Numbered from the stretch's first letter, positions 37,293 through 64,000 are shown. The stretch is DNA of 64,000 nucleotides from Candidatus Latescibacterota bacterium (GCA_965242865.1 CBDETK010000013.1:2048001-2112000); one strand, 5' to 3'. The notes: generated by a model from the letters alone, not told the origin. Numbers and translations are program-made.

Positions 37293-38933
37293 ATGCTGCG
37301 CTGCCTGTGGGTCGCCTGCTTGGGCGCGGCAAGTGGCTGCGGCCTCTTGTCGGAAGCGCCCGTAGCGGAAGTAGGGCCGCACCCAATCACGGCCGCTGCG
37401 CTGAGGAGTTTTGTCGCCGAATGGTCGGGGAGCCGGCCCCCTGCACAGACCGCCGACCAAGCCCGTCGATACTATCTTCAGACCATGATCGACGCCCGTC
37501 TGTTGCTGGTGGAAGCCCGTTCCCGCGGCATCGACACCACGCAGGCCGTGCGAGCAACGGTTCGGGACGCAATCGACGCCCGAGTCCGGGCCCTCTATCG
37601 GGCCCGCGAAATCACGGATGCAATCGCAATTTCCGCAACCGAAATTCGCGCCTATTTCGACGACGAAGGGTATGGGGTAGAGCGCAAAGTCAGCGGCATA
37701 CTGGTAGAAAGCCAGACGGAGGCCGATTCACTGGTGGCCCAGTTGCGTGCGGGACGGCCCTTTGCAGAAGTAGCCGCGGCGCACTCCATAGATGGGCGCT
37801 CGGCCCGCCAAGGCGGGGAGTTGGGGTTCGTCGGGCGCGACATGGTGCCGCGGATTCACATCCCCCCGGAAGTTTTCCGCACGCTCCCCCTCGGCGCGAT
37901 CTCAAAACCTGTGTACACGGGCAAGTACTGGAACATCGTGCGCTTTACCGCAGACCGGCCGGCCGCCTACGACAAGTACCGAGACTCCATCCACCGGCGG
38001 CTCTTTGCGGAGCGGGCGGCCCAAGCCACCGAGGAACACCTCGAGCTGCTGCAAGACGCCTTTGAAGTGCGGCTGCACGAAGAGGCCCTGCAGCCGCTAG
38101 TAACCGCCTACCGCCGACAGAACCTTTCCGCGCTGACCGAGCAATCGCTTCTCCTATATACTTTTGACGAGGGCGCGATCACCGTGGCCGCGGCCGTGAA
38201 GATTTTGCAAGAGCAGCATATCGGCTTTGGCTTCGCCGACCATGTTCAGGCCGCTTCCACGCTCAAGCGCATCGTGCTGAATCCCTTCCTCATCCAAGAG
38301 GCCGCACGGCGGGCGGGCTACTACGAAAAACCCGCGATCCAGCAGCTAAAAAAGGCCAAGGACGAGGAAGCCTTACTCGACGGTCTCAAAGAGGCTGTAA
38401 GCCGAAAACTGGATTTATCCGAGGCGGATGTGCGCCGCTACTACGAAAGCCACCCCGCGGTTTTCAGCCACGAGCCGGCCGTGTGGGTTGAGGAAGTACT
38501 CCTGCCCAGTGCCGACGAGGCGCGAAAAAAGAGAGCGCTGCTAGAACGTGGCACTCCCTTCGCCGAGCTAGCGGGCGCAAGCCTGCGGTCGGACGCTGTT
38601 GAGAAAGCCAATCGATTCCATTTCCATCCGCTAGAGCAGGCTGTCTATCCCAAGCTGATGGCGGCGCTCGAGGACGCATCCGCGGGCGAGCTCGTCGGAC
38701 CAGTGGCTGTCGAAGGCGGCTTTTCCCTCTTTCGCATCCTCGACCACGAGGAGGCCTCCATCGAACCTTATGAACAGGTTCGGAAGCGGGCCGAGGCCCT
38801 GTTGCGCCGCGAGCGGGAACACTGGCACCTGCAAGCCCTGTTGAAGAAATTGCGAGAACAGTACGCCGCCCAGATCGAGATCGACGAAGTGCGCCTGCGC
38901 GAAGCCGTGCCCGACAGTCTCCTGCTCCGCTGA
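37293..38933 (+). CDS. Two-domain parvulin (PpiC/PrsA-like) peptidyl-prolyl isomerase lipoprotein
   Basis: Lipobox-like ASGC; VAEVG..IT; FAEVAAAHSID..SARQGGELGF; second FAELA..S..GPV..GFSLFR domain. Confidence 0.85.
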   Translation: MLRCLWVACLGAASGCGLLSEAPVAEVGPHPITAAALRSFVAEWSGSRPPAQTADQARRYYLQTMIDARLLLVEARSRGIDTTQAVRATVRDAIDARVRALYRAREITDAIAISATEIRAYFDDEGYGVERKVSGILVESQTEADSLVAQLRAGRPFAEVAAAHSIDGRSARQGGELGFVGRDMVPRIHIPPEVFRTLPLGAISKPVYTGKYWNIVRFTADRPAAYDKYRDSIHRRLFAERAAQATEEHLELLQDAFEVRLHEEALQPLVTAYRRQNLSALTEQSLLLYTFDEGAITVAAAVKILQEQHIGFGFADHVQAASTLKRIVLNPFLIQEAARRAGYYEKPAIQQLKKAKDEEALLDGLKEAVSRKLDLSEADVRRYYESHPAVFSHEPAVWVEEVLLPSADEARKKRALLERGTPFAELAGASLRSDAVEKANRFHFHPLEQAVYPKLMAALEDASAGELVGPVAVEGGFSLFRILDHEEASIEPYEQVRKRAEALLRREREHWHLQALLKKLREQYAAQIEIDEVRLREAVPDSLLLR

Positions 38934-39036
38934 GCGGCTCGGCTTTTCAGGGGGCGGATGTATTTACGCAGCCTTGTCAAATTGGTATCCTACACCAAGG
39001 CAAGGCCACCCGGCCCGGCCCAATCAGGAGGTCGCT

Positions 39037-42000
39037 ATGGGACATTCCAGCAAACGGTTCGTCCGGTCGTCGCCGCTGTTTTGCGCCTTGATTTGCCTAG
39101 GCCTGCTCGCCAGTGGGCGCGAGGTGCTCGCTCAGCGCGGCAAAGGACATCGGGTCACCAACAGCCGCATCGTCGTCGAGACCGCCGAACACTGGCGCAA
39201 CTGGCAGTTGCCCGTCCATGCCGTTGACGTGATACCCGAAGGAGGGGTTCGCCCCCACCGCTCGCGCCAGCGCTACAACATCCTCGACGACCAAGCTACC
39301 TTTACCCGCCCGCTGACCGATTTCAGACGCCGGAAAAACCAGCACGCCATCCTCAATATCGATAGCACTGTCACGCGCGACGTGAAGGGCACCGTCATTA
39401 CCGACAGAAAAGACAACCCCCTCTATACCCACTTCGCCCGGCCGGGTATCAGCCGGGTGGGCTCCAATCCGCGAGCAGCAAAAAACATCCTCGATGGCGA
39501 CTCAAGCACCTACTGGGAGCCGGACCGCAACGATCCCCTCAAAGACTGGTGGATCGAAGTGGACTTGGGCCGGGTCGTGGCGGTCGATGAGATTTTGTTG
39601 CACTTCGTCGGCGCCGGGCAGGGCGACCCCTTCCTGCGCTTTAGGGTCCTAACCGCGCCCGACCAAGAAGCCATCCTCGAAGACGCCGACGAAGTGGAAC
39701 TGAGCCGCGTTGGCGGCACGCAGGCACCCAACCGCGACCAGCGCGACTTCAGCTTTGCGCTGGAACAGCCTAAGAGCTCGCCTAGTTGGCGCGGGAGGTT
39801 GGTCCAAACCATTCGCATCGTCGTCACGGATACCCACGCCGGGCGCGGCGCCGAAGTCAGTGAAGAGCAGTGGCTCGCTCTCGACCCGGCAGACCGAGGC
39901 GACATCCTCTATTTTGTCAAGGACCGGCAGGGTTTTGAGGAACGCTTAGATCCGAGCCGCCTCCAAGAGCCGGTGGAGACGTTCTACGACAACCTGCCAT
40001 CCGCCAGGCGAGGAGCAAAGAAATTCTTCATCCGCGAGCGGCCCCGCCTAGCCGATATCGAGGTTTGGGGCTTTGGCGACAACATCAGCCCGGGCATCGT
40101 TGAGGGCGGCGGCAGCCTTTTTCTGTCAGGGGAAAATTTCGCGCCCGGCCCGGGCTTTGACGGCGACTACAATACCAACTTCCTGCACTTGGTCTGGTCG
40201 CCGCTCATCGAGCGCGGCGTCCTGACCGTCGATATGGGCGCATCCTTTTTTCTCGACGCCATAGCGGTTTCGGCTGCTGGGCGGCGGCGCGTCATCGACG
40301 GCTATATCATGCGTGGCTCCGACGGCTCGCGGGATTCCTCCGGCCGCTTGAAGTGGCGGCGCATCAGCCCGCGAGCGCGCGAAGACAACAGCGTTGACCT
40401 GTACGAGCATCTCCTCGATACCTACGACGGAATCGAACTCCGCTTTCTCGAAATGACCATCGTCTCGGTCGATCCGCGCCGCCGTGGCGGCTACAATACG
40501 GGCGCTGATATCGGCGAATACCAGATCTTTTCCCAGGGCTACCCCGCCGAGGTCGTACTGACTTCGGACCTGATTGAATTGCCCGCCGCTCGCAACTTGG
40601 GCCGCATCATCTACGACAGCGAGGTTCCACCCGGCACCAACCTCGAAATTCGCACCCGGTCCGGCGATCTGCTGGGCAAGACCATCCGCTACTTCGACAA
40701 ATCCGGCACCGAACTCACGTTTGATGCCTGGGACAGCTTGCTCCGCAGCTACAAGGGGCCGGTTGATACCTCCTTTGTGCCGGCTAGCGGCTGGAGCCCC
40801 TATAGTCGAGCCTATCAGCAGTCGGGCGATCGCGTCACGTCGCCGGGGCTGCGTAAGTTCTTGCAGATCCAAGTCAAGATGGAGACCACAGACCGCAATA
40901 TCGCCGCGGCGATCCACTCCATAAACATCGAACTCGTCAACCCGGCAGTCTCCAATATCGTGGCCGAACTATGGCCCCCTGAAGTAAAGGTGCCAGGACG
41001 GACCGATACCTTTGAGGTGTTTGTCCAGTCCCAGTTTATTCAGTCGCCCGCCTCGGCGCGCAGCGTCGGCTTTGACGAAATCCTCCTCGTCATGCCCCCC
41101 TCCCAAACGCTGCAACTGCTCGAAGTGGGCATCCAAGACAGCGCCGTTGGCTCGGAGCGGATCTTCTCGCCCGCGGGCGACCCTACCGCTTTTGTCGATG
41201 GGGGCGGCCGCCCACTCGAGCTGCTAAGTCCTAGCGCTGATTCGCTCTGGGTGCGCCTCCCCGAATCCCTCAACGCACTCGCAGACGCCCCCCGCACGTA
41301 CCGCCGCCGCACCGCGGAGGGCGACCAAGTGCCGGTGACCGCAGACGGCTTGCCGCTAACGGACGCTGCGTATGGCCTGCTCGAGGTGGAGGAACAGGGC
41401 GATATCCGCTATTTCCGCCGCACCGAGGGCATCCTGTCCCAAGTCTCCGAAGCCGCCTACCAAGCCTTGGAGCCCGAGCAGCAGGGGCCGATTCGCTACT
41501 TCCGCATCCTGCGCGGCGATGGGGCCCAGTTCCCCTTTGATGCAGCGGGCGACTCGCTCGATGTGACGGCCTACAACCGCCTGCCGACCGCCTCCCGGGG
41601 CACCGTGGTCTCGCCCGGGCCCTTAATGCGGCTGCGCTTTGCCGCTCCCGTCTTTGTCAACGGCACGACCTTGAGCTTGGCCGTGCGCAACACCAGCGGC
41701 GGCGCCAATCTGGCCGCGCCTTGGCAAAGCGTCGAAGCCGGCGACGCGACCGCCCGGATAGGCAGCAATGCCCTCTCGATCAACCTGCCGCTCAACGCCA
41801 AGGCCGTCGATGAATTCCGCATCGCCCCCAATCCGTTTACCCCCAACGGCGATGGCATCAACGACGCGACCGAAATCCACTTCTCCGTCTTCAAACTCAC
41901 CGCTCCCCGCCCGGCTCGGGTGCGGGTGTACACGCTGGCGGGTCGCCCGGTTTGGGAGCATGCCCAGCAATTGCAAAGCGGGCGCTTCAGCACGCGCTGG

Positions 42001-42123
42001 GACGGAACAGACCTGAACGGCCGCAAAGTGCCGCCCGGACTTTACCTTTGCCAAGTGGACCTCGACGTAGATCGGGCAAGCCGCTCGGCGACGCGGACGC
42101 GCCTGCTGTCGATCGCCTATTAG
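39037..42123 (+). CDS. Large exported protein with discoidin-like domain and C-terminal FlgD-Ig / type-B-like CTD
   Basis: AGGAGGT RBS; signal peptide; NILDGDSSTYWEP..WWIEVDLGR; RTRSG; PNPFTPNGDGIND; WDG.D.NG.KVPPGLY; ends SIAY*. Confidence 0.85.
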   Translation: MGHSSKRFVRSSPLFCALICLGLLASGREVLAQRGKGHRVTNSRIVVETAEHWRNWQLPVHAVDVIPEGGVRPHRSRQRYNILDDQATFTRPLTDFRRRKNQHAILNIDSTVTRDVKGTVITDRKDNPLYTHFARPGISRVGSNPRAAKNILDGDSSTYWEPDRNDPLKDWWIEVDLGRVVAVDEILLHFVGAGQGDPFLRFRVLTAPDQEAILEDADEVELSRVGGTQAPNRDQRDFSFALEQPKSSPSWRGRLVQTIRIVVTDTHAGRGAEVSEEQWLALDPADRGDILYFVKDRQGFEERLDPSRLQEPVETFYDNLPSARRGAKKFFIRERPRLADIEVWGFGDNISPGIVEGGGSLFLSGENFAPGPGFDGDYNTNFLHLVWSPLIERGVLTVDMGASFFLDAIAVSAAGRRRVIDGYIMRGSDGSRDSSGRLKWRRISPRAREDNSVDLYEHLLDTYDGIELRFLEMTIVSVDPRRRGGYNTGADIGEYQIFSQGYPAEVVLTSDLIELPAARNLGRIIYDSEVPPGTNLEIRTRSGDLLGKTIRYFDKSGTELTFDAWDSLLRSYKGPVDTSFVPASGWSPYSRAYQQSGDRVTSPGLRKFLQIQVKMETTDRNIAAAIHSINIELVNPAVSNIVAELWPPEVKVPGRTDTFEVFVQSQFIQSPASARSVGFDEILLVMPPSQTLQLLEVGIQDSAVGSERIFSPAGDPTAFVDGGGRPLELLSPSADSLWVRLPESLNALADAPRTYRRRTAEGDQVPVTADGLPLTDAAYGLLEVEEQGDIRYFRRTEGILSQVSEAAYQALEPEQQGPIRYFRILRGDGAQFPFDAAGDSLDVTAYNRLPTASRGTVVSPGPLMRLRFAAPVFVNGTTLSLAVRNTSGGANLAAPWQSVEAGDATARIGSNALSINLPLNAKAVDEFRIAPNPFTPNGDGINDATEIHFSVFKLTAPRPARVRVYTLAGRPVWEHAQQLQSGRFSTRWDGTDLNGRKVPPGLYLCQVDLDVDRASRSATRTRLLSIAY

Positions 42124-42224: not shown

Positions 42225-44900
42225 GTGAAAGGAACGAAAAGCACCCGCTCTTTTGTGCTAACTGTTCTGGTCCCATGTTGTCTCCTGCTGCTCCCCCCGG
42301 TTGGCTCAGCCCAAGAATACGGTGCTCGGCTGGGCACCCTCCAGCCCGGCGGGCACGTTTCCTTTGAGCCTCAAGGGCCTGGGGTTCTCTTCGGGGCCCT
42401 CGATCCGGCCAAGCGCAGGTGGTACGTGCCCCAAGAGCTCTACAACGAGTACCAGTGGCGTCAATGGGAGTATTCCAACTATGCGCGCCAACACTACGAG
42501 CGCTACGTCAGCATCATCAACGAGGGCGACTCGTACTACGACCTCTACGGCAACTTCGTCACCCGAGGTTGGCTCCTTTTTAACAACTCCCAAGCCCAGC
42601 CCCAGCAATTTGGCTCCTCGGTCCTCAAAGGCAGCAATTTCCAAAGTTGGTTCAGTGGGCTGCTGGTCTCGGCCGATGCCAAGGGCCAGCACCACTACTC
42701 AGTGACCATCGGCGATAACATCCGCACCACGCTTACCCCGATGACCTTTTCCAAGCCCCGCTGGGACGGCGTCCAGTTCGACTACGCAGCCGACAAGTAC
42801 CAAGGTACGCTCATCTACTCGCGCCTCAGTCAGCCGGGGGGCAATCCCGACGTAGAAAACCTCGCCACCAACGCCACCTCCCTGATTGGCGGGCGCGGCA
42901 CCCTGCAGGTGGGCGACTTTGCCACCCTAGGCTTGACGGCCGTCAATTCCCACCAGTCCAACACCCTCATCAGCGGCTTTAGGGGCAACCCGGTCACCGG
43001 CAAACTCACGATCGACCAAAACCAGACGATCTCCTTCATCGAGATCGTGCTGCGCGACGACTCGCCCGAAGACCAAACCGGCGGCGCGGCTTTCTTCCCC
43101 ACGGGCTCTGACATCATCATCACCTACGACGACGGCACGGTGGACCGGGGCAAGGACATTCGCTTTGAGCCGATCATCGAAGGCGGCTTTATCCGCCAAG
43201 GCTTTCTCTCGGCCGATGGCACCGAGGAAATTCGCCTGCGCTACGATTTCGACAGCCCGGCGTTTGTCAATCGTTCATCCGGGGCTAAGGAGGCCATCAA
43301 AAAGGTCGAGTTCCGCCTAGTGCTGGGCAATGACTACCAAATCTGGATCTCTTCAAACAACCAACTCAACATCTCGGATGTATCGGTGCTCTTGCTGGTC
43401 GCCCAAGCCGAGGGCAATGTCCAAGACAACACCAACTTGCAGGTCGTCAGCTTTGAGTACGGCTTGCCCACGGCGACTCAAATCTGGGGCGCCACGCTCG
43501 AACTAGCCGAGGTTTTTGGCTTCAACTTCTACGGCGAATACGACTTGAGCTACTCTTATACCCAGTATCCCAACGTGTTGCGCAAAAGCCACTCGACCTC
43601 CGCGGGCCTCCGCGGCGATCGGGCGGCCCCGGCTTGGATGGTCAACCTCTCGCGCAACACGTATCCTTGGTTCGCCTTTGGCGAGGCCTACAGCATGGAC
43701 CCGCGTTACAACACGCGGACCTTCACCACGCTGAGTTCTGGCTTCATCGACTACGAGGACGAACGCGTCCACGTAGTGGAGTTGGTTGAAGACAACGACG
43801 ACCAAGACCGCTATCCCGACACCGTGCGCAAGGATTGGCGGGCCGGCGACCAAGAAGTCTATCCCGGCTGGGACGAGAACAACGACTTCATCTCCGACTT
43901 CAACCAGAACGACAATCGCTTCCTCTCCAACTCCGTTCCCGACTACGAAGAGCCTTTCCTGCGCCACAACGTCGATCATCCCGAGTTCCTCTTTGGCATC
44001 GACCTCAACAACAACGTTTGGATCGACCGCTTTGAAAACGACGAGGCTCCCGACTACCCCTACAAGAAGGACCATCGGGGGTTCAACGTATATGGCGGTA
44101 TGCACCTGACGCCAGCGGTCCGGCTGATGGCCGGGGTCCTGCGCGAGGACCTCATCACCTCGAACCAAGCAAACCGCGTCAACTACGTGCTGTTCACCAT
44201 CGACACGTCCACGCCTAATTGGGGCCGCTTTCGCCTCTTTGAGATGATCAAGTCCGTTGCGGACGACATTCCCGACGACCTGCAACAGTGGTTGCCCAAC
44301 GCCAATATCCGCACTGGCGAATCGACCAAAATCGAGGACCCCCTCATCGCGCGCGACACTTACGTCAACGCCCTGTGGCTGGGCCACGACTACCAGCACG
44401 GCGGCTTCGTCGCCAAGAACTTTCTCAAGTACGACCTGTACTATCAGCGCCTCGACGCGGACCAACGCGCCCCCTTGGGCCTGCGCCAGCGCGACTTTTT
44501 CTTTGGCTTCGTCAACAAAGTGAGCTACCGCATCAACCTAGGCCGCCTCTGGATTGAGCCGCGCTGGAAGAGCCAGTACCGCCAACAGACCATCGACCTG
44601 CTTTCGCAGGAAAAACGCACCGAACTGGCCGAAATCGGCGGTTTCCTGCTGGGTTTTCCCATGCTCCAGCACACGACCCTGCGGTTCGGCTTGGAGTTGA
44701 CCTTTGTCAACGATTTCGAGCGCGACCTCAACGACTTTAACAGCATCGTCGGTGCCGCCCAGTTCACGAATGTATCCGACTATCTGGGCTATAAGCTCAC
44801 CACGCAGATGGGCATGCGGATAGATCGCCGCAACCCCAAGGGCGACGAATCGGAAACCATCACCGAAAGTTTCATCGCCGTGTACGCCGGCCTGCAATAG
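42225..44900 (+). CDS. Exported ~890-aa protein, putative outer-membrane beta-barrel with acidic insert (paralog A)
   Basis: GAGGAGGT+GTG; signal peptide; alternating-hydrophobic strands in the C-half; EDNDDQDRYPD, DENNDFISDFNQND, DLNNNVWIDRFEND; ends FIAVYAGLQ*. Confidence 0.7.
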   Translation: MKGTKSTRSFVLTVLVPCCLLLLPPVGSAQEYGARLGTLQPGGHVSFEPQGPGVLFGALDPAKRRWYVPQELYNEYQWRQWEYSNYARQHYERYVSIINEGDSYYDLYGNFVTRGWLLFNNSQAQPQQFGSSVLKGSNFQSWFSGLLVSADAKGQHHYSVTIGDNIRTTLTPMTFSKPRWDGVQFDYAADKYQGTLIYSRLSQPGGNPDVENLATNATSLIGGRGTLQVGDFATLGLTAVNSHQSNTLISGFRGNPVTGKLTIDQNQTISFIEIVLRDDSPEDQTGGAAFFPTGSDIIITYDDGTVDRGKDIRFEPIIEGGFIRQGFLSADGTEEIRLRYDFDSPAFVNRSSGAKEAIKKVEFRLVLGNDYQIWISSNNQLNISDVSVLLLVAQAEGNVQDNTNLQVVSFEYGLPTATQIWGATLELAEVFGFNFYGEYDLSYSYTQYPNVLRKSHSTSAGLRGDRAAPAWMVNLSRNTYPWFAFGEAYSMDPRYNTRTFTTLSSGFIDYEDERVHVVELVEDNDDQDRYPDTVRKDWRAGDQEVYPGWDENNDFISDFNQNDNRFLSNSVPDYEEPFLRHNVDHPEFLFGIDLNNNVWIDRFENDEAPDYPYKKDHRGFNVYGGMHLTPAVRLMAGVLREDLITSNQANRVNYVLFTIDTSTPNWGRFRLFEMIKSVADDIPDDLQQWLPNANIRTGESTKIEDPLIARDTYVNALWLGHDYQHGGFVAKNFLKYDLYYQRLDADQRAPLGLRQRDFFFGFVNKVSYRINLGRLWIEPRWKSQYRQQTIDLLSQEKRTELAEIGGFLLGFPMLQHTTLRFGLELTFVNDFERDLNDFNSIVGAAQFTNVSDYLGYKLTTQMGMRIDRRNPKGDESETITESFIAVYAGLQ

Positions 44901-44910
44901 CTTCGGCCTT

Positions 44911-47181
44911 ATGGCCCCGAGCGTTCCGATCGGCCGCGGCGAACTTTGGACTGGGAGCCTCATCGTCCTGCTGGCCTTGGGGCTGCGCCTCTACTACCTG
45001 AACGAACTCTCGTCAAGCCCGCTTTTCGCCGTTCCGGTCGTCGATGCTCGGACCTATGTCGATGACGCCCGCTACCTCAGCGAGGTCTCTTGGGCTGGGC
45101 GTCCGACGCCCTTTTGGCAACCGCCGCTCTATTCCTATCTACTCGGCTTGCTCTTCGCCGTAGGCGGCGAAAATTACTACCTGCCCCGCCTGCTCCAAGC
45201 CCTATTCGGGGCGCTCGTCTGTGGGGGGACCTACCTGCTCGGTCTTCGGCTCTTTCCCCCGGCCGTGGCGCTCGGCGCGGGGCTGGCCGCCGCTTTCTAC
45301 GGCCCGCTCATGTACTTTGGCGGCGAATTACTGCCCACCACCTTGGCCCTCCTCCTCCACTTGGCTTTGCTGCTGTTGCTGCTCACCGCTCCCCTAAAAC
45401 GGCGTTGGCCGTGGCTGCTCGCCGGTCTGGTACTGGGGCTGGCCGCCCTAGCGGTGGCCAACATTCTCCTGTTCGCGCCGGTATTGCTTCTTTGGCTTTG
45501 GTTTTCTCGCGGGAGCTTTGTCCAGCGAGGAGCCTCGTTTTTCCTCGGCCTCGCGCTGGTCGTGGCCCCGGTCGCGGGGCGCAATTATCTAGTCGGCAAC
45601 GACTCGGTGCTCATCTCGCACAACGCCGGCATCAACTTCTACATTGGCAACAACCCCGATTACCAGCGCACGGTCGAGATCCGCCCGGGCAGGGCTTGGC
45701 TCCAGCTAGTGGAAATGCCCGAGCGCGAAGCCGGCATTGAACGCCCATCGGCTAAATCCCGTTTCTTCTTCGCCCGTTCCTATGACTTTGCCGTTGCGAA
45801 TCCGCTCGACTATGCGCGGCTCCAGCTTTACAAGCTCTATCTGTTTTGGCACGGCGACGAAATAAAGCGCAACATCGATCCATATTTTGCCCGCCGCGAC
45901 TCAGTGCTTTTGGCCGTCCTCTTGTGGAAAAAGGGCGTGGCCTTCCCCTTCGGATTGGTAGCCCCGTTGGCCCTCATCGGCCTAGTGCTCTTTGCGCGCA
46001 CTGCGGCGGGCAAGACCGAGCAGGGGCAACTCTGCTTGCTATTCACGCTGACGTACATGGTCTCGGTGGTCGGCTTCTTCGTCACCGCGCGCTACCGGCT
46101 GCCCGTCGTGCCCTTGCTTTTACTTTACGCCGGTTTTGGGCTGTACTCGCTGTGGAAAGAAGGACCCCAGCGCCGGAAGGCCCTAGTGGCTTTGCCCCTG
46201 CTATTGCTCATGGCCAATCTCGGCGCCGGGGCTATGGACGAGGAGGGCGAACCTCAGCAGCACTTCTGGCTGGGCTATGCTTACGAGCGCAAAGGGATGC
46301 CGGCCAATGCCATGCGCGAATACAAGTGGGTCCTCAACCGGCGGCCCGACCACGACGACGCGCTCTTGCGCCTAGCCGCTCTCTACGTCGAAGAAAAGGA
46401 CTACCACAAGGCCGTTGAACTCTACCGAAAATACTTGGAGTTCTACCCCGAGGCGGCCCGGGTCCGCTACTTTCTCGGCAATGCCCTATTGCAGACGCGC
46501 CACTACGAGGACGCTATTGCGATCTACGAGCAAGTAGTCCAAAAGCGCCCCCACTGGGCGGCCCTCCACGGCCGAATCGGCTATGCCCACGCCATGGCGG
46601 GCCAGCTCGGGCCAGCCGCCGCCGCCTACCGCCGCACCCTAGCGTTGCGTCCCGACTCTACCTTGGTGCGGTACCAGTTGGCCCGGCTCTACGAAACAGA
46701 AGGCCAGTTGCCGGCCGCGGCCGCTGAGTACCGCACGTTGCTGGAGCAAGCCCCTACCGAACCCGAGTACCGCATCCGCTTAGCCGAGCTGCTCGTCGCG
46801 GAAGCAGCCGCGGGACAAACGACCGCGCTCTTGCAGCAGACGCTCCAGACCCAGCGGGCCGAGGTCCTTTTGCGCCGAGCTATCGACCTCGATCCAAGTC
46901 GCGTCCAAGGCTATTGGAGCATGGGGTTACTCTTGGCGCGACAGCAGCGCTATTCCCAAGCGTTAGGATTCTTTGAGAAAATTGCCGAACTCGCGCCGCA
47001 GGATGCCCAAGTACACGCCTGTCTGGGCAATCTGTACGAGCGTCTCGGGCGCGAAGCAAAAGCGCGGGAACACTTTGCGTACTACGACCAACTCAAGCGC
47101 AAACGGCGGTTGCAGGACAAAGCGCGGGCCGAAGTAAAAAAGAATGTAGAACTGGTAGAGAAAATATTCGGGGCGCGATAG
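44911..47181 (+). CDS. GT-C (PMT/ArnT-like, GT39-type) glycosyltransferase with C-terminal TPRs
   Basis: VDARTY, QPPLYSY, NFYIGNN, RYRLPVVP; many TM helices followed by TPR repeats. Confidence 0.85.
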   Translation: MAPSVPIGRGELWTGSLIVLLALGLRLYYLNELSSSPLFAVPVVDARTYVDDARYLSEVSWAGRPTPFWQPPLYSYLLGLLFAVGGENYYLPRLLQALFGALVCGGTYLLGLRLFPPAVALGAGLAAAFYGPLMYFGGELLPTTLALLLHLALLLLLLTAPLKRRWPWLLAGLVLGLAALAVANILLFAPVLLLWLWFSRGSFVQRGASFFLGLALVVAPVAGRNYLVGNDSVLISHNAGINFYIGNNPDYQRTVEIRPGRAWLQLVEMPEREAGIERPSAKSRFFFARSYDFAVANPLDYARLQLYKLYLFWHGDEIKRNIDPYFARRDSVLLAVLLWKKGVAFPFGLVAPLALIGLVLFARTAAGKTEQGQLCLLFTLTYMVSVVGFFVTARYRLPVVPLLLLYAGFGLYSLWKEGPQRRKALVALPLLLLMANLGAGAMDEEGEPQQHFWLGYAYERKGMPANAMREYKWVLNRRPDHDDALLRLAALYVEEKDYHKAVELYRKYLEFYPEAARVRYFLGNALLQTRHYEDAIAIYEQVVQKRPHWAALHGRIGYAHAMAGQLGPAAAAYRRTLALRPDSTLVRYQLARLYETEGQLPAAAAEYRTLLEQAPTEPEYRIRLAELLVAEAAAGQTTALLQQTLQTQRAEVLLRRAIDLDPSRVQGYWSMGLLLARQQRYSQALGFFEKIAELAPQDAQVHACLGNLYERLGREAKAREHFAYYDQLKRKRRLQDKARAEVKKNVELVEKIFGAR

Positions 47182-56203: not shown

Positions 56204-58219
56204 TTGGAAGAATATCGCCCCATTGGTCCCCTTTTCGAGCGGCGGCTGTCGTTGCAGATAGTCCCTCCAATCCTGCTGCTGCTGCTGTCCGTGTGCCCAA
56301 CCAGCGCACGGGATGTTTTTACCGTCGGCGGCAACGAACATCCTTGGCGCAATTCTGGCACAACCCCTGGGGGGGTGATCGATTTTGTCGAGCAATTGGG
56401 AACTATTGAGGACGCCAACGGCGAAAAAGTGTTTGCCGTTGGTTTGGATTCTCTGCAAAACTGGATCATGCCGCTGCGCTTGCGCTCCGACTTCAACATT
56501 TCGCTCGGTGTTCTCGAGCGGGGGGGCACTATAGATATTCCGGGGCTGGATGCTAGTCAGAAAAATCCAGAGCAGTTGGTGGGCATGCTCAATGGCGACC
56601 ACCGAGTGGCTTTTGACCGCAAGTTCGTGGCTGGCCGCATCGTGCGCAACAACGGCGTCACCATTCGCATTGACCTCGGTGCGCGCTTTGGAGTGGACCG
56701 AATCGTGTTCTATCCGCGGATGACGGCGTCGTTTCCCTTTGGGAACGAATTCATGCGGGGATACGAGTTGTTCCTCAACGATGGCTTGCCGCAAAACCTC
56801 TTTGCCAGTGGGCAGCCCATTTTTACCTCGCCGGTGCGGCGCGATTCAGACAACCGCGCGGCCAGAGTAGAAGCCCAGATCAACCCCCAATTTGTCCGCT
56901 TTCTGCAACTCAAGTCGATTTCCACCCTCGGGTTTGAAATTGACGAGATAGAGGTGTACGGCAGGGGGTTCGTACCGACGGCTAGCTACGTGTCCAAGGT
57001 GCTGGATCTGGGCGAGGAGGTCGTCTGGGGGCAAATCGCTTGGGGCGAAGTGGCCGCGGGCAATAGCGCGGATTCCAAGCTAGAAATCCGCGTCCGCAGC
57101 GGGCGGGATACGACCCCCGATGTCTTTTTTCGCAATGCCAATGTGGGGGGGCGGCAACCCGAATACGTGCCCACCGATAGCGAAGGCAATACGCTGACAG
57201 AAGAAACCTTTGGAAAACTGGCGAAGAACCAACAGGGGCCGATTAAAGCCGACGCTGACAACGGCTGGGTCCAGTGGCAAGTGATCGACAATGGGGCCTT
57301 TCTGACTGTGCCGGCGCCACGGCGCTACTTCCAGTTCCGCATCGACTTCACCAATCTGAGCTTGGATGCTAGCCGCGCGGTCGCCGACTTAGGCTTTGAG
57401 TTTGCACGGCCCCCGGTGGATCGCATCGTCGCCGAGGTGGGACCGCCGCGCACCGAGGTCGGCCAACAGACGACTTTTACGTACTTTGCCCGCATCACCA
57501 ATACTACGGGCCGGCCGGGATTCACGCGCTTTGAAATCGAAACCCCGGCCCGCATCGCGGCCATCCATTCGGTGGAGATCCAAGACCGGGCGGGCACTCG
57601 CCTAGATGGCGCCGAGTTCAGCGGCGATCTGGCTGCTGCGTCTTTGCCCCTGCGCGTCGGAGCGTTCTCCATTGAGGCGGTGGAGGACGACCACTTTGCC
57701 CTAAGCGTACCCCGGATCGACGCCGATGGCACTCTTTTGAAAATTGTCTTTGATGCAGCCGTGTTCCGCTATGGTACGCGTTTCCAAGGGCGGGCTTTGG
57801 CCGACTCCAGTGTGCAAGTGCCGCTGCAAACTGAGGGCGGGGATGCTTCGGCCGAACAGGATACCGACGAGTTGCTGGTGCAGATTCCCGTGGGCTCGCA
57901 GGTGGCTGGCCCGCTAACAATCCAGCCGCGGACCTTCACCCCCAACGGCGATGGGGCCAATGACGTGGCGGAAATAAGCTATGCGGTTCTGCACCTGCTC
58001 AAACCATCGCCGAGCGAGGTAAATATCTATAACTTGGCTGGTAGCCGCGTGCGGCGGCTCAACTCTGCCGAGGTCCAAAACGGCCGTATCGAGCTACATT
58101 GGGACGGTCGCGGCGACGACGATCGCCTAGTGCCGCCGGGCACCTACTTGGCGGTGGTGGAAATCCGCTCCGACCGGGAGACCGAGCGGCGTTCCACCAG
58201 CGTATCCGTGGTCTATTAA
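56204..58219 (+). CDS. Exported FlgD-Ig / type-B-like CTD protein
   Basis: DLGARFGVDRIVFYPR, FEIDEIEVYGRGF, IRVRSG, PAPRRYFQ, FTPNGDGAND, WDG.GD..RLVPPGTY; ends VVY*. Exact start uncertain. Confidence 0.85.
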   Translation: MEEYRPIGPLFERRLSLQIVPPILLLLLSVCPTSARDVFTVGGNEHPWRNSGTTPGGVIDFVEQLGTIEDANGEKVFAVGLDSLQNWIMPLRLRSDFNISLGVLERGGTIDIPGLDASQKNPEQLVGMLNGDHRVAFDRKFVAGRIVRNNGVTIRIDLGARFGVDRIVFYPRMTASFPFGNEFMRGYELFLNDGLPQNLFASGQPIFTSPVRRDSDNRAARVEAQINPQFVRFLQLKSISTLGFEIDEIEVYGRGFVPTASYVSKVLDLGEEVVWGQIAWGEVAAGNSADSKLEIRVRSGRDTTPDVFFRNANVGGRQPEYVPTDSEGNTLTEETFGKLAKNQQGPIKADADNGWVQWQVIDNGAFLTVPAPRRYFQFRIDFTNLSLDASRAVADLGFEFARPPVDRIVAEVGPPRTEVGQQTTFTYFARITNTTGRPGFTRFEIETPARIAAIHSVEIQDRAGTRLDGAEFSGDLAAASLPLRVGAFSIEAVEDDHFALSVPRIDADGTLLKIVFDAAVFRYGTRFQGRALADSSVQVPLQTEGGDASAEQDTDELLVQIPVGSQVAGPLTIQPRTFTPNGDGANDVAEISYAVLHLLKPSPSEVNIYNLAGSRVRRLNSAEVQNGRIELHWDGRGDDDRLVPPGTYLAVVEIRSDRETERRSTSVSVVY

Positions 58220-58244
58220 GTGCTAGCCAAGCGAGGAGGGGATT

Positions 58245-60914
58245 TTGAACAAGCACTATCGGGTTGTGGTGGGTGCTGTTCTCTGGGCACTAGGCTGGAG
58301 TGCGCCGACTTGGGTTGGTGCCCAAGGGTACGACTCGCGCATGGGTAGAGTGAAACCGGGTGGAAAGGTGGATTTTTCTCCGCAAGGACCGGGGGTATTA
58401 TTCGACGCCCTAGATCCAGCAGTGCGCAAATGGTACGTTCCCCAAGAGCTGTACAAGGAATACCAGTGGAGACAGTGGGAATACTCCAACTACGCCCGCG
58501 CTCCCTATCAGCGCTATGTGGACACCGCGTTGGAGGGCGATTACTTCTACGATTTCTTCGGCAACCTAGTCACCCGAGGTTGGTTGATCTACGATTGGCA
58601 GCAAGATCGCCCCCAGCAATTCGGCAGTAGCATCCTCAAGACCAACAGGTTTAACCAATGGTTCAACCGAGTAGCCATCTCCTCAGACCACAAGGGACAA
58701 TACTACTATAGAATCACGATTGGCGATGAGATCCGCACTACTTTGACCCCCATGACTTTTTCTAAACCCACCTTCAACGGTATTCAGTGGGACTTTGCGG
58801 CCGACAAGTACCAAGGTACTCTACTGCTGGCCCGCCCCAGTCGGCCAGCCGTGGCCACCTCTTTGGATATTCCCGATCAGAAGACTAGCGTCACCAACTT
58901 ACTGGGCGGGCGAGGCATCGTTCAGGTCGGCGACTTCGTCCAACTCGGGGCGACTTATGTGACCGCCTTCCAAGGCCAGACGCTGTTCGACGATTTCACC
59001 GGCAATCCCTTTGCCGGTGGGGCTCTGACCACCGACCAGAATGCGCTGCCTATATCCCGTATCATTATCCGGCTGTCGGACGACTCGCCCGCCGACGGAG
59101 TGGGTGGGGCGGCCCTGTTCGACGACGAAATCATCATCGAGGATGTAGATGGCAACGTTTTCAGAGGCAGTGCCATAGGATTCGAGCCCATACGCGAAGG
59201 GGGGTTCCAACGAGTGGGGTTTTTAGCTGCGGACGGCGACGAGCGCATTACCCTTACCTACGACTTTACGGACCCTTTGTACACCGGGCCCGATCCTACG
59301 ACGATAGAAAGAGTATCCTTTGAATTGGTGATCTCCAACGACTACAAGGTGGAAATCACGTCGGACCGGCAGACGAACCGAGACTCACAGCCCGTCTTCT
59401 TGCTGATAGAACGGGCCCAGAACAATATCCGCGACAACTCCAACCAGCGCCTGTTGAAATTCGACTACGGTCTGCCCACGGCCAATACCATCTTTGGCGT
59501 CACCTTCGAGGCCAACAAGATCTGGGGGTTCGACTTTTACGGCGAGTACGATTTCAACAATCAGTACCGTCAGTATCCCAACCTCAATCTAAAGGATCAT
59601 CATAAGGCGGTGAACGACGCCCAGGCATGGATGTTCAACCTGTCCAAAGCGTCCTACCCTTGGTTCGCCTTTCTCGAAGGCTATAGCATGGACGCGGATT
59701 ACTCCACCCGCACCTTTCTAGCGGGTACTCGGGGACAGGACGAAATCGATTACGAAGACGAAATATCCTATATCTATGAATTCGTCGAGGACAACGACGA
59801 CCAAGACCGCCGGCCGGACTGGAGCCGCTATAGTATGCTGTCGGACAATGCGGTCTTTCCGGGCTTTGACGAGAACAACGATTTCGTCTCGGATTTCAAC
59901 CAGAACGATACGGAGGATCGACAGAACTTCATTCCCGATTACGAAGAGCCTTTCCTGCGCTATCACTCCGATAGGCCCGAATACCTCTTTGGCGTTGACA
60001 TGAACAACAACGGCTGGATCGACCGCTTTGAAAACGACGAAGAACCCGATTATCCCTACGGGCGCGACCACCGCGGCTACAATTTTTACGCGGGAACCCA
60101 CATCGGGCCGGAGGCCCGGCTGACCGTCGGGCATTTGCGCGAAAAATTGCTGGCGGGGGATCGCAACAACGAATCCACGTACCTGCTCTTCACCTACGAA
60201 AGGGATTTTGCCCGGTTGGGCCGTTTGCGCGTGTTCGACAACTTCAAGTGGGTCGAGGACGACATTCCCGACAATCTCTTCCAGTGGGTGCAGCCGTCTA
60301 ACTCCCGCGGTACTCAACAGCGCGTGTTCGATTTGCTCCCGGCGCGCGACACCTGGATCAACACTTCCTATGTGCAGTTCGATTTCACGCTCGTAGGGGA
60401 CCTGAATGTGATCAACAAGTTCAAGACTGAAATCTACAAGCAGTGCCGCGAGCAGCGCGACCTGCGCGACACAGCTAGCTTTGTCGGTCTCATCAACAAA
60501 GTCGATTACACGTTCCCGGTGAGAAACATCGAACTTGAACCGCGCTTCAAGAGCGAATTTTTGCGCGAGCACCCCGTTCGCAAGCGAGCCCCAGAGCGCC
60601 GCGAATTGACCGAGACTCTTTTTCTCATTGCCCGCATTCCTCTGCTCTCCCACACGCTCATCGAGTTGGGACTAGAACTGTCCCATTTTGAGCAGTTCCG
60701 CGACGATGAGGAGGGGGTGCCGGTCCATCGCGACTTGGAGCCGGATTCCTTCAGTCGCATCGTCGCGGTGCAATTTAACAACGCCTCGGATTACTTGGGC
60801 TACAGGCTCCATCTGCAGACGGGGTTTCGCCTACAGAAGCTGACGTTTGAAAATCTGCCCTCTAGCACGACCAGCAAGATATTTATGACGGCCTACGCAG
60901 GGCTAGAACGCTAG
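58245..60914 (+). CDS. Exported ~890-aa putative beta-barrel protein (paralog B)
   Basis: GAGGAGG+TTG; shares WYVPQELY.EYQWRQWEYSNYAR, IRTTLTPMTFSKP, YGLPTA, EDNDDQDR, DYEEPFLR, SDYLGY with 42225..44900; ends FMTAYAGLER*. Confidence 0.7.
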   Translation: MNKHYRVVVGAVLWALGWSAPTWVGAQGYDSRMGRVKPGGKVDFSPQGPGVLFDALDPAVRKWYVPQELYKEYQWRQWEYSNYARAPYQRYVDTALEGDYFYDFFGNLVTRGWLIYDWQQDRPQQFGSSILKTNRFNQWFNRVAISSDHKGQYYYRITIGDEIRTTLTPMTFSKPTFNGIQWDFAADKYQGTLLLARPSRPAVATSLDIPDQKTSVTNLLGGRGIVQVGDFVQLGATYVTAFQGQTLFDDFTGNPFAGGALTTDQNALPISRIIIRLSDDSPADGVGGAALFDDEIIIEDVDGNVFRGSAIGFEPIREGGFQRVGFLAADGDERITLTYDFTDPLYTGPDPTTIERVSFELVISNDYKVEITSDRQTNRDSQPVFLLIERAQNNIRDNSNQRLLKFDYGLPTANTIFGVTFEANKIWGFDFYGEYDFNNQYRQYPNLNLKDHHKAVNDAQAWMFNLSKASYPWFAFLEGYSMDADYSTRTFLAGTRGQDEIDYEDEISYIYEFVEDNDDQDRRPDWSRYSMLSDNAVFPGFDENNDFVSDFNQNDTEDRQNFIPDYEEPFLRYHSDRPEYLFGVDMNNNGWIDRFENDEEPDYPYGRDHRGYNFYAGTHIGPEARLTVGHLREKLLAGDRNNESTYLLFTYERDFARLGRLRVFDNFKWVEDDIPDNLFQWVQPSNSRGTQQRVFDLLPARDTWINTSYVQFDFTLVGDLNVINKFKTEIYKQCREQRDLRDTASFVGLINKVDYTFPVRNIELEPRFKSEFLREHPVRKRAPERRELTETLFLIARIPLLSHTLIELGLELSHFEQFRDDEEGVPVHRDLEPDSFSRIVAVQFNNASDYLGYRLHLQTGFRLQKLTFENLPSSTTSKIFMTAYAGLER

Positions 60915-61053: not shown

Positions 61054-61929
61054 ATGAAGAGAATCAACGAAGCATCCATTGCGTTACTGGTCTCGATCCT
61101 CATGGTCGGCTCGGCTTTTAGCCACCAAGGGGAGATGAAGTTCATGTTCCAGTTCCCGGATCACCTGACGCCGGTGCTGGACGGCGATATGTCGGACTGG
61201 GACATCGTAAGCGATGTGTACAAGATCAAAGCCGAAACCATGTTCAACCAGTTCGGTGCGCCCATGGATTTGAGCGATTTCAACGCTTGGCTCGTCTGGG
61301 GCTACAACATCAACGACGGCAAGGCCTATTTTGCAGCTTGGGTTGCCGACGACTTCATCAACGACACCGAGAAGTGGTCGACGACTACAGATTGGGACCA
61401 CTCCGGTGGCATCTTTCGCGGCTTTGACCAAGGGGACGATTTTGAGACCCGCTGGGCCAGTGCCCAAGCCCAACGCTACGATCTGGCCGGCCCCATTTTC
61501 AGCTCTTCCGGTTATTATACCCGGATTATCGACGGCTCCAAAGCGTGGGCGGGCCAGTCCCCTTACGTGGAATGGGCCGGCAAGTTTCTCCGCGGCGACG
61601 TCAATACACAGGAGCCAGCAGAAATGTTTGGCGAATACTCCATTGTGCCCTTTGACGACATCCATCCCGACGGTGCCGACCAGAGTGTCAGGCACAATTG
61701 GGTGGAAGGCACCGTTGTCGGCATAGAGGTCAACTGGGGCGACAAGGATGCCGATCCCGGCTCCTACGACGATGCCTATTGGTCCGGTTTCGGCGGCATA
61801 GGTGCTTCTCGGGACGCCGACCAGTTCGGCGACTATTTGTTGGCGCCGATTGAAGAGGGGTTGCCCGAGGCTCGAGCTACCTCAGTCGAGGCCAACACTT
61901 GGGGCCAGATCAAGTCCACCTTCAAGTAA
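61054..61929 (+). CDS. Exported acidic DOMON/CBM9-like protein with WGx(L/I)K tail (paralog B)
   Basis: AAGGAGAGGT RBS; ...AFS|H; FQFPD..PVLDGDMSDW; ends LLAPIEEG...TSVEANTWGQIKSTFK*. Confidence 0.75.
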   Translation: MKRINEASIALLVSILMVGSAFSHQGEMKFMFQFPDHLTPVLDGDMSDWDIVSDVYKIKAETMFNQFGAPMDLSDFNAWLVWGYNINDGKAYFAAWVADDFINDTEKWSTTTDWDHSGGIFRGFDQGDDFETRWASAQAQRYDLAGPIFSSSGYYTRIIDGSKAWAGQSPYVEWAGKFLRGDVNTQEPAEMFGEYSIVPFDDIHPDGADQSVRHNWVEGTVVGIEVNWGDKDADPGSYDDAYWSGFGGIGASRDADQFGDYLLAPIEEGLPEARATSVEANTWGQIKSTFK

Positions 61930-61956
61930 AGTCGAAGAGGTTGTAGGATGGTTTCA

Positions 61957-61996
61957 GGCGGGATTTACGGGCGACTGTAAATCCCGCCGTTCTCTT
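61957..61996 (+). terminator. Strong hairpin with weak U-tract (terminator or mRNA-stabilising stem)
   Basis: GGCGGGATTTAC-GG-GCGA-CT-GTAAATCCCGCC followed by GTTCTCTT. Confidence 0.65.
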
Positions 61997-61998
61997 GC

Positions 61999-63861
61999 GT
62001 GGCGACCATGCAAAGGAGGCACTGGGTGAGACGGGTACTGATGCTAGTCCTGACCGCGCTGGGAATGGCCGAGGCGCGCCAATTTTACCAGCTGGGGGGC
62101 CATGGTGGAAACCCTTGGAGCGAAAGCGGCACCCTGAGTTCTATCGATGTGGCAAAGGTGCCGGGTGCCATCCGCCCGTTCAGTACCGAAAGCGGCGAGA
62201 ACCTAATTGCCTCGATGGGCGAGCGGCAGGGCGACATCACCAGCTTGGTGAGCATTTACACCCTGCCGGCCAATTGGCTGGACGACCGCGTGCGGATCGT
62301 AGATGGCGATTCAACTACGGCTTTTGTGCATCCGCCGCGCATCAATTTTTTTCGCGGCCCTGGGTTCTTCTATACCACGCCGATGTTCTTCGATTTGGGG
62401 GCACCATTCCCCATTGAAGGGATTCGCTTTGCAACCCGCGCCGATCATCCGGGGCACAAGATCCGCCAGTTTAGGCTTTCCATCAACGACGGCAGGGAGG
62501 AGAGCAAAGACGAAAAAGGGAATCTCGTCTGGACCTTGCTTCACGACGAGAAAGACAATTTGAGCCCGGTCGTCGAACTGGCTATCGAACCCCAGATAGC
62601 GCGCCACGTCTATCTCCACCCCTTGGAAGTGGGCGAGACTTGGGAAGTGGCCGAGTTTGAGGTGTACGGTCAGGGGTTCGTTCCCCAAGCCTCATTTCGG
62701 TCCGACCCGATTGATCTGGGCCGAGCATCGAGTTTGGGGCGCATTTGGTGGAACGGTCAACTCGATCCAGAAGCGAAAATAGTCATCCAGAGCCGCAGCG
62801 GCCGCGATGACCAGCCCGAGATTTACTGGCGCAAGACCGGGGTGGGCGGAGAGGAAGTGCCATTCGGAGCCAATGGCCGCCCCATGAGCCGCCAATCCTA
62901 TGAAGCCATGCCCCAGAACGTGCAGGGGCGCATTACCCAGGATCTGGAAAACTGGAGCGTATGGCACACCTATGAATATGCGGACGGCCTCGCCGGCAAC
63001 CGCATGCTCTCGCCCAGCCCCCGGCAGTACGTGCAGCTACACATCGCTTTTTTTTCGGCCCGATTAGAGGGGGGACAGATCGACTCCCTGTTTTTTGAAT
63101 TTTCCCAACCCCCGGTCGTCTCCGCGGCGATTGGCGAGATTTACCCTCCCTTTGTCGAGTCGGCCGACCCGGTTCGGTTCACCTATGCGGTGCGGACGCG
63201 ACTGGAGGCAGAGCAATCGGGTTTTAATGTGCTCGAGGTGCGGACTCCCGCTCGTCTAGAGGCCATCCACGAAGTGCGGATCGACCGCGAAGTGGTCCAT
63301 TTTACCCCGAGTTTCGATCCGGCGGCTCCCCACCAGTTCGCAGTCCAATTTGATCGCATTGACCAAGATCAGACGCTGCTAGAAGTCGATTTCGACGCCC
63401 GCGTCTTAAACTATGGAACGACTTTCAGCGGCGCCGTGTCGGATGCAGACCGCGATGAAGTCCCCCAGAGCGTGATTCCCGGAGATGCGATGAGTGAGTT
63501 GTTGAGCGATGCTTTGGACGTCCGCACACCGCTCAAGGGCCGCCTGCTCAGCGCCGTGCAGGTGGTTCCCAACCCGTTTTCACCCAATGGAGACGGCGTC
63601 AACGACCAAGTGCAGTTCTCCTATACCTTACTCCGTCTGACCGATGGCGTACCTCTTGAGACGGAAATCTACACGCTGGCGGGAAACCGAGTGCGCCTCT
63701 TGGACGCCGGGGAGAGGGGGAGCGCGCTTTATCAAGTTACTTGGGACGGTCGGGATGACCGAGGCGAATTGGTGGCCCCAGGGCTATACATCTACCGCGT
63801 GGTGGTAGAAGCGGGCAGGGGTTGGGAGGAGCGACTGGGGCCGGTCGCTCTGGCGTACTGA
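61999..63861 (+). CDS. Exported FlgD-Ig / type-B-like CTD protein
   Basis: DLGAPFPIEGIRF, WEVAEFEVYGQGF, QSRSG, SPSPRQYVQ, PNPFSPNGDGVND, WDGRDD.G.LVAPGLY; ends ALAY*. Confidence 0.85.
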   Translation: MATMQRRHWVRRVLMLVLTALGMAEARQFYQLGGHGGNPWSESGTLSSIDVAKVPGAIRPFSTESGENLIASMGERQGDITSLVSIYTLPANWLDDRVRIVDGDSTTAFVHPPRINFFRGPGFFYTTPMFFDLGAPFPIEGIRFATRADHPGHKIRQFRLSINDGREESKDEKGNLVWTLLHDEKDNLSPVVELAIEPQIARHVYLHPLEVGETWEVAEFEVYGQGFVPQASFRSDPIDLGRASSLGRIWWNGQLDPEAKIVIQSRSGRDDQPEIYWRKTGVGGEEVPFGANGRPMSRQSYEAMPQNVQGRITQDLENWSVWHTYEYADGLAGNRMLSPSPRQYVQLHIAFFSARLEGGQIDSLFFEFSQPPVVSAAIGEIYPPFVESADPVRFTYAVRTRLEAEQSGFNVLEVRTPARLEAIHEVRIDREVVHFTPSFDPAAPHQFAVQFDRIDQDQTLLEVDFDARVLNYGTTFSGAVSDADRDEVPQSVIPGDAMSELLSDALDVRTPLKGRLLSAVQVVPNPFSPNGDGVNDQVQFSYTLLRLTDGVPLETEIYTLAGNRVRLLDAGERGSALYQVTWDGRDDRGELVAPGLYIYRVVVEAGRGWEERLGPVALAY

Positions 63862-63868
63862 TAAAAAC

Positions 63869-64000
63869 ATGCGACCCAGAAAACCATGGACTCGGCGAGG
63901 ATGCGAGCTAGCCCTCTTATGGAGTCTCGCGGCGTGTTCGCCGGGTGTGGAGGTCGTCCTCGAACCCGGTGTGGTGGCGCGCATTGATTCCACTTCCATC
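63869..64000 (+). CDS. Lipoprotein, 3'-partial (possibly another PPIase/SurA-like)
   Basis: MRPRKPWTRRGCELALLWSLAAC (lipobox)...GVVARIDSTSI, which resembles the VAEVG..IT start of 37293..38933. Confidence 0.45.
   Translation, partial: MRPRKPWTRRGCELALLWSLAACSPGVEVVLEPGVVARIDSTSI

Follow-up and report, generated by a model that had tools for sequence, protein, structure and literature searches.

Textbooks assign active import across the outer membrane to TonB-dependent receptors. SusC/SusD utilisomes are encoded in repeated paralogous cassettes that combine a large barrel with carbohydrate-binding partners and with surface binding proteins, and inner-membrane transporter-like genes lie nearby (bioRxiv 10.1101/2022.08.15.503959), a layout shared by the cassette described here. 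The type-B branch of the T9SS (type IX secretion system) is encoded differently, as gene pairs such as SprB-SprF and PG1035-PorP-PorE, in which a protein with an Ig-fold C-terminal domain (CTD) stands directly upstream of a barrel of the PorP/SprF family, about 300 aa long, 14-stranded and of FadL type (PMC9143113, PMC12618676, PMC12635249). A third related arrangement is that of the vWA transducers, in which TPR, ExbB and ExbD genes accompany the gene of a transducer whose N-terminal helix bears a His and is joined by a long linker to a globular head (PMC12204202). For the phylum Latescibacterota, an early genome study named non-specific porins and TonB receptors as the routes of outer-membrane uptake (PMC4454575). 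Here we describe a gene cassette found in a 64,000-nucleotide stretch of a Latescibacterota genome (the window; G000:C13:2048001-2112000, G000 being the genome under study). Two back-to-back copies fill positions 37293-64000, and each is centered on a barrel of about 890 aa that does not show the tested hallmarks of either PorP or TonB receptors.

The cassette is undescribed. No description of it was found in the literature covered, which did not extend to supplements or subscription journals; for DUF4159, a domain of the putative transducer discussed below, a Pfam paper listing was the sole return, and the main text of PMC12993501 mentions neither secretion, T9SS nor TonB. A first-pass annotation of the window had put the system forward as a candidate undescribed one and placed it outside the Bacteroidota, and both statements stand. 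Its reading frames and recurring families all lie where it had placed them, including five CTD proteins and a sixth at 1-1080. Its parvulin, GT-C/TPR and ASPIC/TPR assignments hold as well, and the frame at 63869, described there as a probable second parvulin, is a parvulin of 578 aa. Our favored explanation, held at a little under even confidence, is that the cassette encodes a motor-driven capture-and-import complex with a lectin crown that is not a TonB receptor. The gene content, the fixed trio of tailed proteins and the co-occurrence of the families are observed and the folds are predicted; the export route, assembly, gating and substrate are proposed. An importer ranks above a display scaffold, which ranks above an export pore and, last, a motility or signalling device. 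The genes of the two cassettes, in order, are as follows.

Cassette 1:
37293..38933, + strand: SurA/PrsA-like parvulin lipoprotein, the cassette 1 foldase (Rotamase_2 E 1.6e-19, SurA_N_3; lipobox-like Cys at residue 16)
39037..42123, + strand: CTD-tailed surface protein, subtype gamma (long), with a discoidin/CBM32 and Ig body (F5_F8_type_C; CHU_C above cut-off; subtype from the tree)
42225..44900, + strand: giant predicted outer-membrane beta-barrel B1, 891 aa, unnamed family (49% identity to B2)
44911..47181, + strand: GT-C (PMT_2) glycosyltransferase fused to TPRs (PMT_2 E 9.6e-10)
47191..49308, - strand: CTD-tailed surface protein, subtype alpha (Pfam scan, tree)
49448..51571, + strand: CTD-tailed surface protein, subtype beta (CHU_C 49 bits; tree)
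51742..52629, + strand: W protein 1, CBM9-like, secreted, with a WGx(I/L)K tail (member of a 27-gene W family)
52650..55613, - strand: FG-GAP/ASPIC-UnbV propeller lipoprotein with TPRs (Pfam; a frequent but optional neighbor)
Cassette 2:
56204..58219, + strand: CTD-tailed surface protein, subtype alpha (AlphaFold model, fold matches); its true start is probably a few codons further downstream
58245..60914, + strand: giant predicted outer-membrane beta-barrel B2, 889 aa (AlphaFold, strand/turn pattern)
61054..61929, + strand: W protein 2, CBM9-like, secreted, with a WGxIK tail (Atlas clusters; CBM9_1 in homologues)
61999..63861, + strand: CTD-tailed surface protein, subtype beta (Pfam scan, tree)
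63869..64000, + strand: 5' end of the cassette 2 parvulin lipoprotein

The gene that follows this parvulin, just past the window end, encodes a seventh CTD protein, the gamma subunit of cassette 2. Gene order within cassettes is shuffled from locus to locus. Together, barrel, trio and foldase genes occupy 368 kb of the 6.0-Mb genome (∼6%).

The genome encodes 37 paralogs of the barrel. The two copies in the window, which the first pass had recognized as paralogs, have no Pfam or NCBIfam family at E 0.01; they match neither the PF00593 barrel and PF07715 plug nor PF11751 and TIGR03519, and a PDB sequence search with the barrel and W profiles gave no significant match. A barrel fold is nevertheless predicted. 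The AlphaFold model of B2, built from 120 sequences (predicted local distance difference test, pLDDT, 75.9; pTM 0.75), resolves 23 strands, a lower bound, and the protein probably has about 24, with one of them within the uncertain N-terminus. On the presumed periplasmic side, 11/11 links counted back from the C-terminus are 2-6 residues long, and the long loops lie opposite. The long-loop side of B2 bears an inserted beta domain of 160 residues (248-407) and an acidic loop of 126 residues (483-608), both of which would face outwards. The acidic loop contains 36 Asp/Glu residues and is the best-conserved part across the wider barrel family; its DxDxDG-type repeats suggest that it binds Ca. The N-terminal ∼110 aa are aromatic and conserved (75-80% column identity in A1). 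Fold searches with B2 returned generic barrels: the best Foldseek match was SlpA (7zgx; E 1.2e-9, TMq 0.19), VIA gave Z 12.9 with a root-mean-square deviation (rmsd) of 7.3 over 425 aligned residues, with several porins tied, and TonB receptors reached a TM of about 0.2. PorP/SprF and PorV were not among the fold matches listed. At ∼890 aa, with at least 23 strands and without a PF11751 match, the barrel differs from PorP/SprF, and without a TonB-receptor domain it also differs from SusC. The clusters matched in the Atlas were unnamed; a weak lead among them was DUF6029 (0.89). The broad barrel profile collected 1214 representatives at 50% clustering, 407 of them with E 1e-30 or better; cluster look-ups for 10 distant barrels yielded a single taxon name. 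Seven barrel pairs have matching first-of-pair and second-of-pair subtrees; six are directly adjacent, and in the other a parvulin gene intervenes.

Several further observations concern the barrels. Homology of the inserted domain to the body of the trio proteins was considered and rejected (hhalign probability 5%). Genome G099 has dozens of divergent barrel genes, several of which appear to be split into pieces of 550-650 aa and lie near transposases, rhamnosidases and DUF6785 genes. A lipoprotein of ∼250 aa without a family match (L136:5090-5809; 12 paralogs in G000) accompanies the older barrel clades, 11/13 of its genes being within 7 kb of a barrel.

The proteins encoded around the barrel were read in the first pass as carrying a type-B-like T9SS tail. 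This holds for the class and less well for the named profiles. Of the six CTD proteins in the window, three exceed the 27-bit CHU_C cut-off (34.9, 49.1 and 37.8 bits) and three fall just below it (23.1, 24.5 and 25.2 bits); TIGR04131 matches five of the six, all below its 35-bit cut-off (16-27 bits). Genome-wide, 185 proteins have a C-terminal CTD-like domain and form two classes. The type-B-like class (n=97) ends in a hydrophobic residue plus Tyr and has PNxDG in 79/97, whereas the type-A-like class (n=88) has PNPFN in 77/88 and PNxDG in 0/88. Clustering of the type-B-like genes with barrels is beyond chance: 75/97 lie within 10 kb of a barrel, compared with 4/88 of the type-A-like genes, and 11.7% of the contig is that close. 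The remaining 22/97 are more than 10 kb from any barrel. Because the bodies of the 97 proteins are all homologous and no type-A body joins them, they constitute one paralogous family rather than mixed cargo. For the protein at 56204-58219, the AlphaFold model (pLDDT 91) places residues 96-253 close to the CBM32 structure 4zxe (Z 14.6, rmsd 2.4, 129 aligned) and the C-terminal part close to an Ig-like region of PorU (6za2, 1019-1157; Z 12.8, rmsd 2.4, 100 aligned).

A FastTree tree sorts 94/97 of these proteins into five clades, assigned by eye. Thirteen cassettes in this genome have one alpha, one beta and one gamma protein, and six cassettes of an older lineage have gamma plus two other subtypes. 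The same composition was seen in other genomes, where the loci read were the best 80 of 524 matches (biased to B2-like barrels and often orthologous): exactly three CTD genes were present in 62/80, and 60/62 of these comprised alpha, beta and gamma, compared with a mean of 14 and a maximum of 27 in shuffles. The trio therefore looks like a set of fixed subunits, not varied cargo. The order of a CTD gene followed by a barrel gene, noted twice in the window by the first pass, is common, with a CTD gene directly upstream of 85/93 readable barrel genes elsewhere and of 23/37 in this genome. A one-to-one pairing is weakened, however, since each barrel has three fixed subtypes and the upstream one varies: gamma before B1, alpha before B2, beta twice in this genome, and 72 alpha and 13 gamma elsewhere.

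A cognate match between barrel and tail is weakened as well. CTD identity is 0.366 within a cassette and 0.362 between cassettes, so that the tails carry no cassette-specific signature. A complex prediction of B2 (27-889) with the CTD of the protein encoded upstream (562-671) speaks neither for nor against contact: its score was 0.00, the mark being 0.32, but the controls did not fold either. Across the thirteen cassettes, barrel distances co-diverge with those of the trio bodies (Spearman 0.70-0.74) and, more weakly, track those of W and the parvulin; duplication of whole cassettes alone could yield this pattern. In a length-matched comparison, 18/25 body windows tracked the barrel better than the CTD did, but the medians for alpha and beta were alike. 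Contigs of relatives that are ∼90-93% identical, from four RNA libraries, cover much of cassette 2, although the runs held only 5-6% of the words, such contigs say nothing on expression level, and DNA carry-over is possible. As a separate matter, barrel-less CTD pairs (gamma plus an epsilon subtype) form subclades of their own, at sites including G000:C13:350480, 766820, 1428950, 1618935 and 3765059.

The first-pass proposal of an analogous or derived system is weakened: with SprA, PorU and a PorV-like gene in the genome, this is not a stand-alone analogue of the T9SS. SprA (TIGR04189) and PorU score above cut-off in this genome, and the PorV-like gene adjoins porU. GldN and GldM were not found and GldK gave only partial FGE-like matches, in a search for these three in this 93.6% complete genome for which no control genome matched. 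PF11751 has no match here or in 75 genomes of the family, and none of the 80 cassette loci has a PorV-like gene. A conserved single-copy locus in five families (G000, G008, G011, G031, G025) has a CTD gene followed directly by a barrel of ∼320 aa. These smaller barrels match PorV_fam under cut-off, TIGR03519 weakly in G031 and PF11751 above cut-off in G025, G029 and G010, and resemble solved PorV at E 1e-11. They occur at 1-4 copies in 97/168 genomes of the phylum, of which 93 have the large barrel and the other 4 are borderline. Their position directly behind a tailed gene makes them the likelier export shuttle. This weakens the suggestion that the 890-aa barrel replaces PorP. A canonical T9SS with a PorP-like partner, which would have explained the cargo without a new barrel, is partly present, as SprA, PorU, the PorV-like gene and the ∼320-aa barrel locus. 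A shared shuttle is plausible, because three orphan type-B substrates of F. johnsoniae use the same one (PMC12618676); against it, the 80 cassette loci contain no such gene, and there 85/93 readable large-barrel genes come straight after a CTD gene.

Among the accessory proteins, W1 and W2 are 31% identical and belong to the cassette W family, of which 23/27 genes lie within 5 kb of a CTD-trio gene. W2 has Atlas matches of 0.93-0.97 to clusters in which 13-94% of members carry CBM9_1, and W homologues match CBM9_1 above cut-off. Unlike SusD-type partners, W has no lipobox, no cassette gene matches a SusD Pfam family, and the other putative binding proteins are T9SS-tailed rather than lipoproteins. 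Proteins with a WG tail number 63 in the genome, 36 of which are unrelated to the cassettes and far from barrels, and the presence of WGx(I/L)K on at least 12 unrelated protein groups suggests that it may be a separate short sorting signal. The parvulins were proposed to be dedicated foldases, and this is supported by the location of 20/27 of them within 10 kb of a barrel. The GT-C/TPR gene is accessory to one barrel clade, lying directly downstream of 6/37 barrels, all in the 8-member B1 clade. The D-(S/T)-hydrophobic O-glycosylation motif occurs 3.4 times per 1000 aa in the trio, against 1.6 in reversed sequences and 2.2 in the background, which is suggestive only. The ASPIC/TPR cluster (25 genes) is the largest non-core family near barrels.

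To place the cassette in the phylum, 168 genomes were surveyed, with the top 5-13 candidates per genome scored in large runs; related genomes among them are not independent. The barrel was detected in 107/168, including 76/76 of this family and 0/56 from three families of the same class. The trio was found in 105/168 and W in 103/168, every one barrel-positive, in agreement with the co-occurring module predicted in the first pass. A long protein with a transmembrane helix, a linker and a DUF4159 head follows the barrel closely, being present in 105/107 barrel-positive genomes and 1/61 barrel-negative ones (borderline, E 3.5e-26). These proteins have the TonB/TolA layout, with an N-terminal helix that mostly contains His and a linker of more than 100 residues, and differ in the head, which is DUF4159 and not TonB_C; the DUF4159 profile matched the uncharacterised structure 4i66 alone in the PDB. 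The same layout, and the neighboring TPR, ExbB and ExbD genes, recall the vWA transducers, with the differences that DUF4159 is not mentioned in the main text of PMC12204202 and that the putative target here is an unnamed barrel family.

Linkage of this putative transducer to barrels was observed in a divergent barrel clade whose expansion in G008 and G099 is accompanied by very few trio genes. On contig C2 of G008, 11/14 long DUF4159 genes are within 5 kb of a barrel (0.9 expected), and the neighbors of the divergent barrels there also include CBM9-like proteins and DUF6785 genes. Carbohydrate-active enzymes (rhamnosidases and a sulfatase) and UxuA adjoin some divergent barrels as well. ExbB/ExbD genes lie within a barrel locus in G000, G008, G011 and G031. 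Of the three ExbB/ExbD sets of G000, the first is canonical and has TonB, the second lies inside the divergent-barrel locus and the third belongs to an operon next to a CTD gene; this operon includes genes for W, a lipoprotein, a PorV-like protein, a giant TPR protein, ExbB, ExbD and a long DUF4159 protein. Of the 29 DUF6785 membrane proteins in this genome, 9 are within 15 kb of a barrel (2.7 expected), compared with 1 near TonB receptors. That a barrel clade expands in the company of TonB-like proteins and not of CTD proteins suits an energised transporter better than a passive anchor, and weakens the earlier idea that the barrel captures or anchors CTD-tagged subunits. Separately, arrays of type-A-tailed proteins of ∼720 aa (G000:C13:367162-410433, 488964-497537 and 3156151-3205137) alternate with closely similar copies, six in all, of the gene for the TonB-like DUF4159 protein.

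Based on these findings, we envision each cassette as encoding one outer-membrane capture-and-import complex. The 890-aa protein would form the large barrel that its predicted fold suggests, possibly with the conserved aromatic N-terminus as a plug. Alpha, beta and gamma may leave the cell via SprA on the shared ∼320-aa PorV/PorP-like shuttle, a route proposed from genes seen in the genome, and assemble on the outer domains of the barrel, where the trio and the CBM9-like W protein would bind a glycan or similar polymer. The barrel could then be opened by the TonB-like DUF4159-headed protein, driven by a dedicated ExbB/ExbD motor encoded elsewhere. The parvulin presumably folds the subunits, and GT-C might glycosylate those of one clade. 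The overall logic would be that of a SusCD utilisome built from unrelated parts. More tentatively, the cassette may represent a whole class of energised importers unrelated in sequence to TonB receptors, with a ∼24-strand barrel, a DUF4159-headed TonB analogue with its own ExbB/ExbD, a lectin-like heterotrimer exported by a T9SS without GldKLMN, and dozens of substrate-specific copies.

A number of points weigh against an importer. Most of residues 17-125, the putative plug, is poorly modelled (pLDDT <50). The motor and DUF4159 genes adjoin the divergent barrel clade and not the cassettes of the window, in which a Pfam scan found no glycoside hydrolase or motor gene, another difference from SusC/SusD loci. 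In this genome, 6/8 long DUF4159 genes belong to type-A propeller arrays or border on them, and 5 of these are far from any barrel. The presence/absence pattern amounts to few independent events, because 56/61 negatives come from three families. DUF6785 is common without barrels too, with 23 and 57 matches in barrel-less genomes. Finally, TonB receptors persist alongside the barrels, with 21 matches in the genome, all in other genes; a replacement model was rejected on PF00593 counts of 21 and 26 in the barrel-rich G000 and G099 versus 14 and 20 in the barrel-less G056 and G071.

The strongest competitor, close to the first-pass view and in our estimate less likely than an importer, is a display scaffold: the barrel would anchor the T9SS-secreted trio as an adhesin or lectin coat for attachment to a host or particle, with no transport, and may either bind the CTD directly as PorP/SprF do or receive the trio from the small shuttle. 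In its favor, the window's cassettes have neither motor nor hydrolase genes, and the CTD gene directly upstream of most barrels is in the order reported for type-B cargo and shuttle (PMC12618676). It is also favored by the lack of PF11751 matches in the family (0/75) and of PorV-like genes in the 80 loci, and by the 1-4 small-shuttle genes available per genome for up to 97 CTD proteins. However, of the 15 barrel genes on contig C2 of G008, the nine barrel loci read included a single CTD-trio-type gene, and such genes are few in G099 as well, beside dozens of barrels. Moreover, CTDs are equally similar within and between cassettes, the subtype upstream of the barrel varies, and a barrel of at least 23 strands is far bigger than the 14-strand PorP (PMC9143113). 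The W motor operon, together with the failure to find GldN and GldM in a search that lacked a matching positive control, raises an alternative that we regard as improbable, namely that the barrel and the ExbB/ExbD-DUF4159 motor export W or pull the trio from SprA in place of GldKLMN. General T9SS export does not need the DUF4159 motor, because SprA is present in 163/168 genomes, including all 56 from the three families that lack both the barrel and the DUF4159 protein; the many WG-tail proteins unrelated to cassettes (36/63) are a further difficulty. Least probable of all is a motor-coupled adhesion, motility or signalling device, like Agl-Glt, in which the motor pulls barrel-bound adhesins or reads ligand binding. 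The co-divergence of tandem barrel pairs is consistent with such a device, as is the set of TPR, ExbB, two ExbD and a non-TonB transducer, which resembles vWA loci proposed, but untested, for gliding (PMC12204202). Dozens of diverged paralogous cassettes nevertheless fit substrate diversity better than one motility machine, and rhamnosidases, a sulfatase, UxuA and DUF6785 adjoin the divergent barrels.

Two other features of the window touch the cassettes.

55736-56035, + strand: stand-alone Smr-domain gene, 99 aa, between the cassettes (PF01713 E 2e-20)
1..1080, + strand: 3' terminal part of a CTD gene of gamma type, from a partial cassette that has no barrel

The partial cassette has a W gene upstream of 1..1080 and an ASPIC gene at 1337-2965. 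Elsewhere in the window, a Type ISP-like methyltransferase/specificity protein (5961-9302, -) and a block of low GC content (52%) that carries an SNF2 helicase (DrmD-like, under cut-off) and a TPR-HigA fusion (29963-33778, +) are probably acquired defence genes. Three tandem fused nucleotidyltransferase-HEPN genes, MNT-HEPN toxin-antitoxin-like and 254-274 aa each, lie at 10915-13338 (-). The low-GC block breaks up a corrinoid methyltransferase cluster (27274-37225, +) that contains a URO-D family protein, a B12-binding protein, an RACo/AcsV-like activator and an MTHFR-DUF5981 protein.

The cassette may provide nutrient capture and import of a kind new to science. If so, it would amount to a new transport principle, in which a further barrel family, unrelated to the TonB receptors, is served by a force transducer of its own. 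Under the display interpretation too, the large-barrel family is new, and the trio would be an obligate T9SS cargo of three subunits outside the Bacteroidota, with type-B export evolving without the gliding motor. Because its barrel, trio and foldase genes take up 368 kb of a 6.0-Mb genome and the barrel is found in 76/76 genomes of the family, the feeding or the attachment of these widespread uncultured bacteria probably depends on this cassette.

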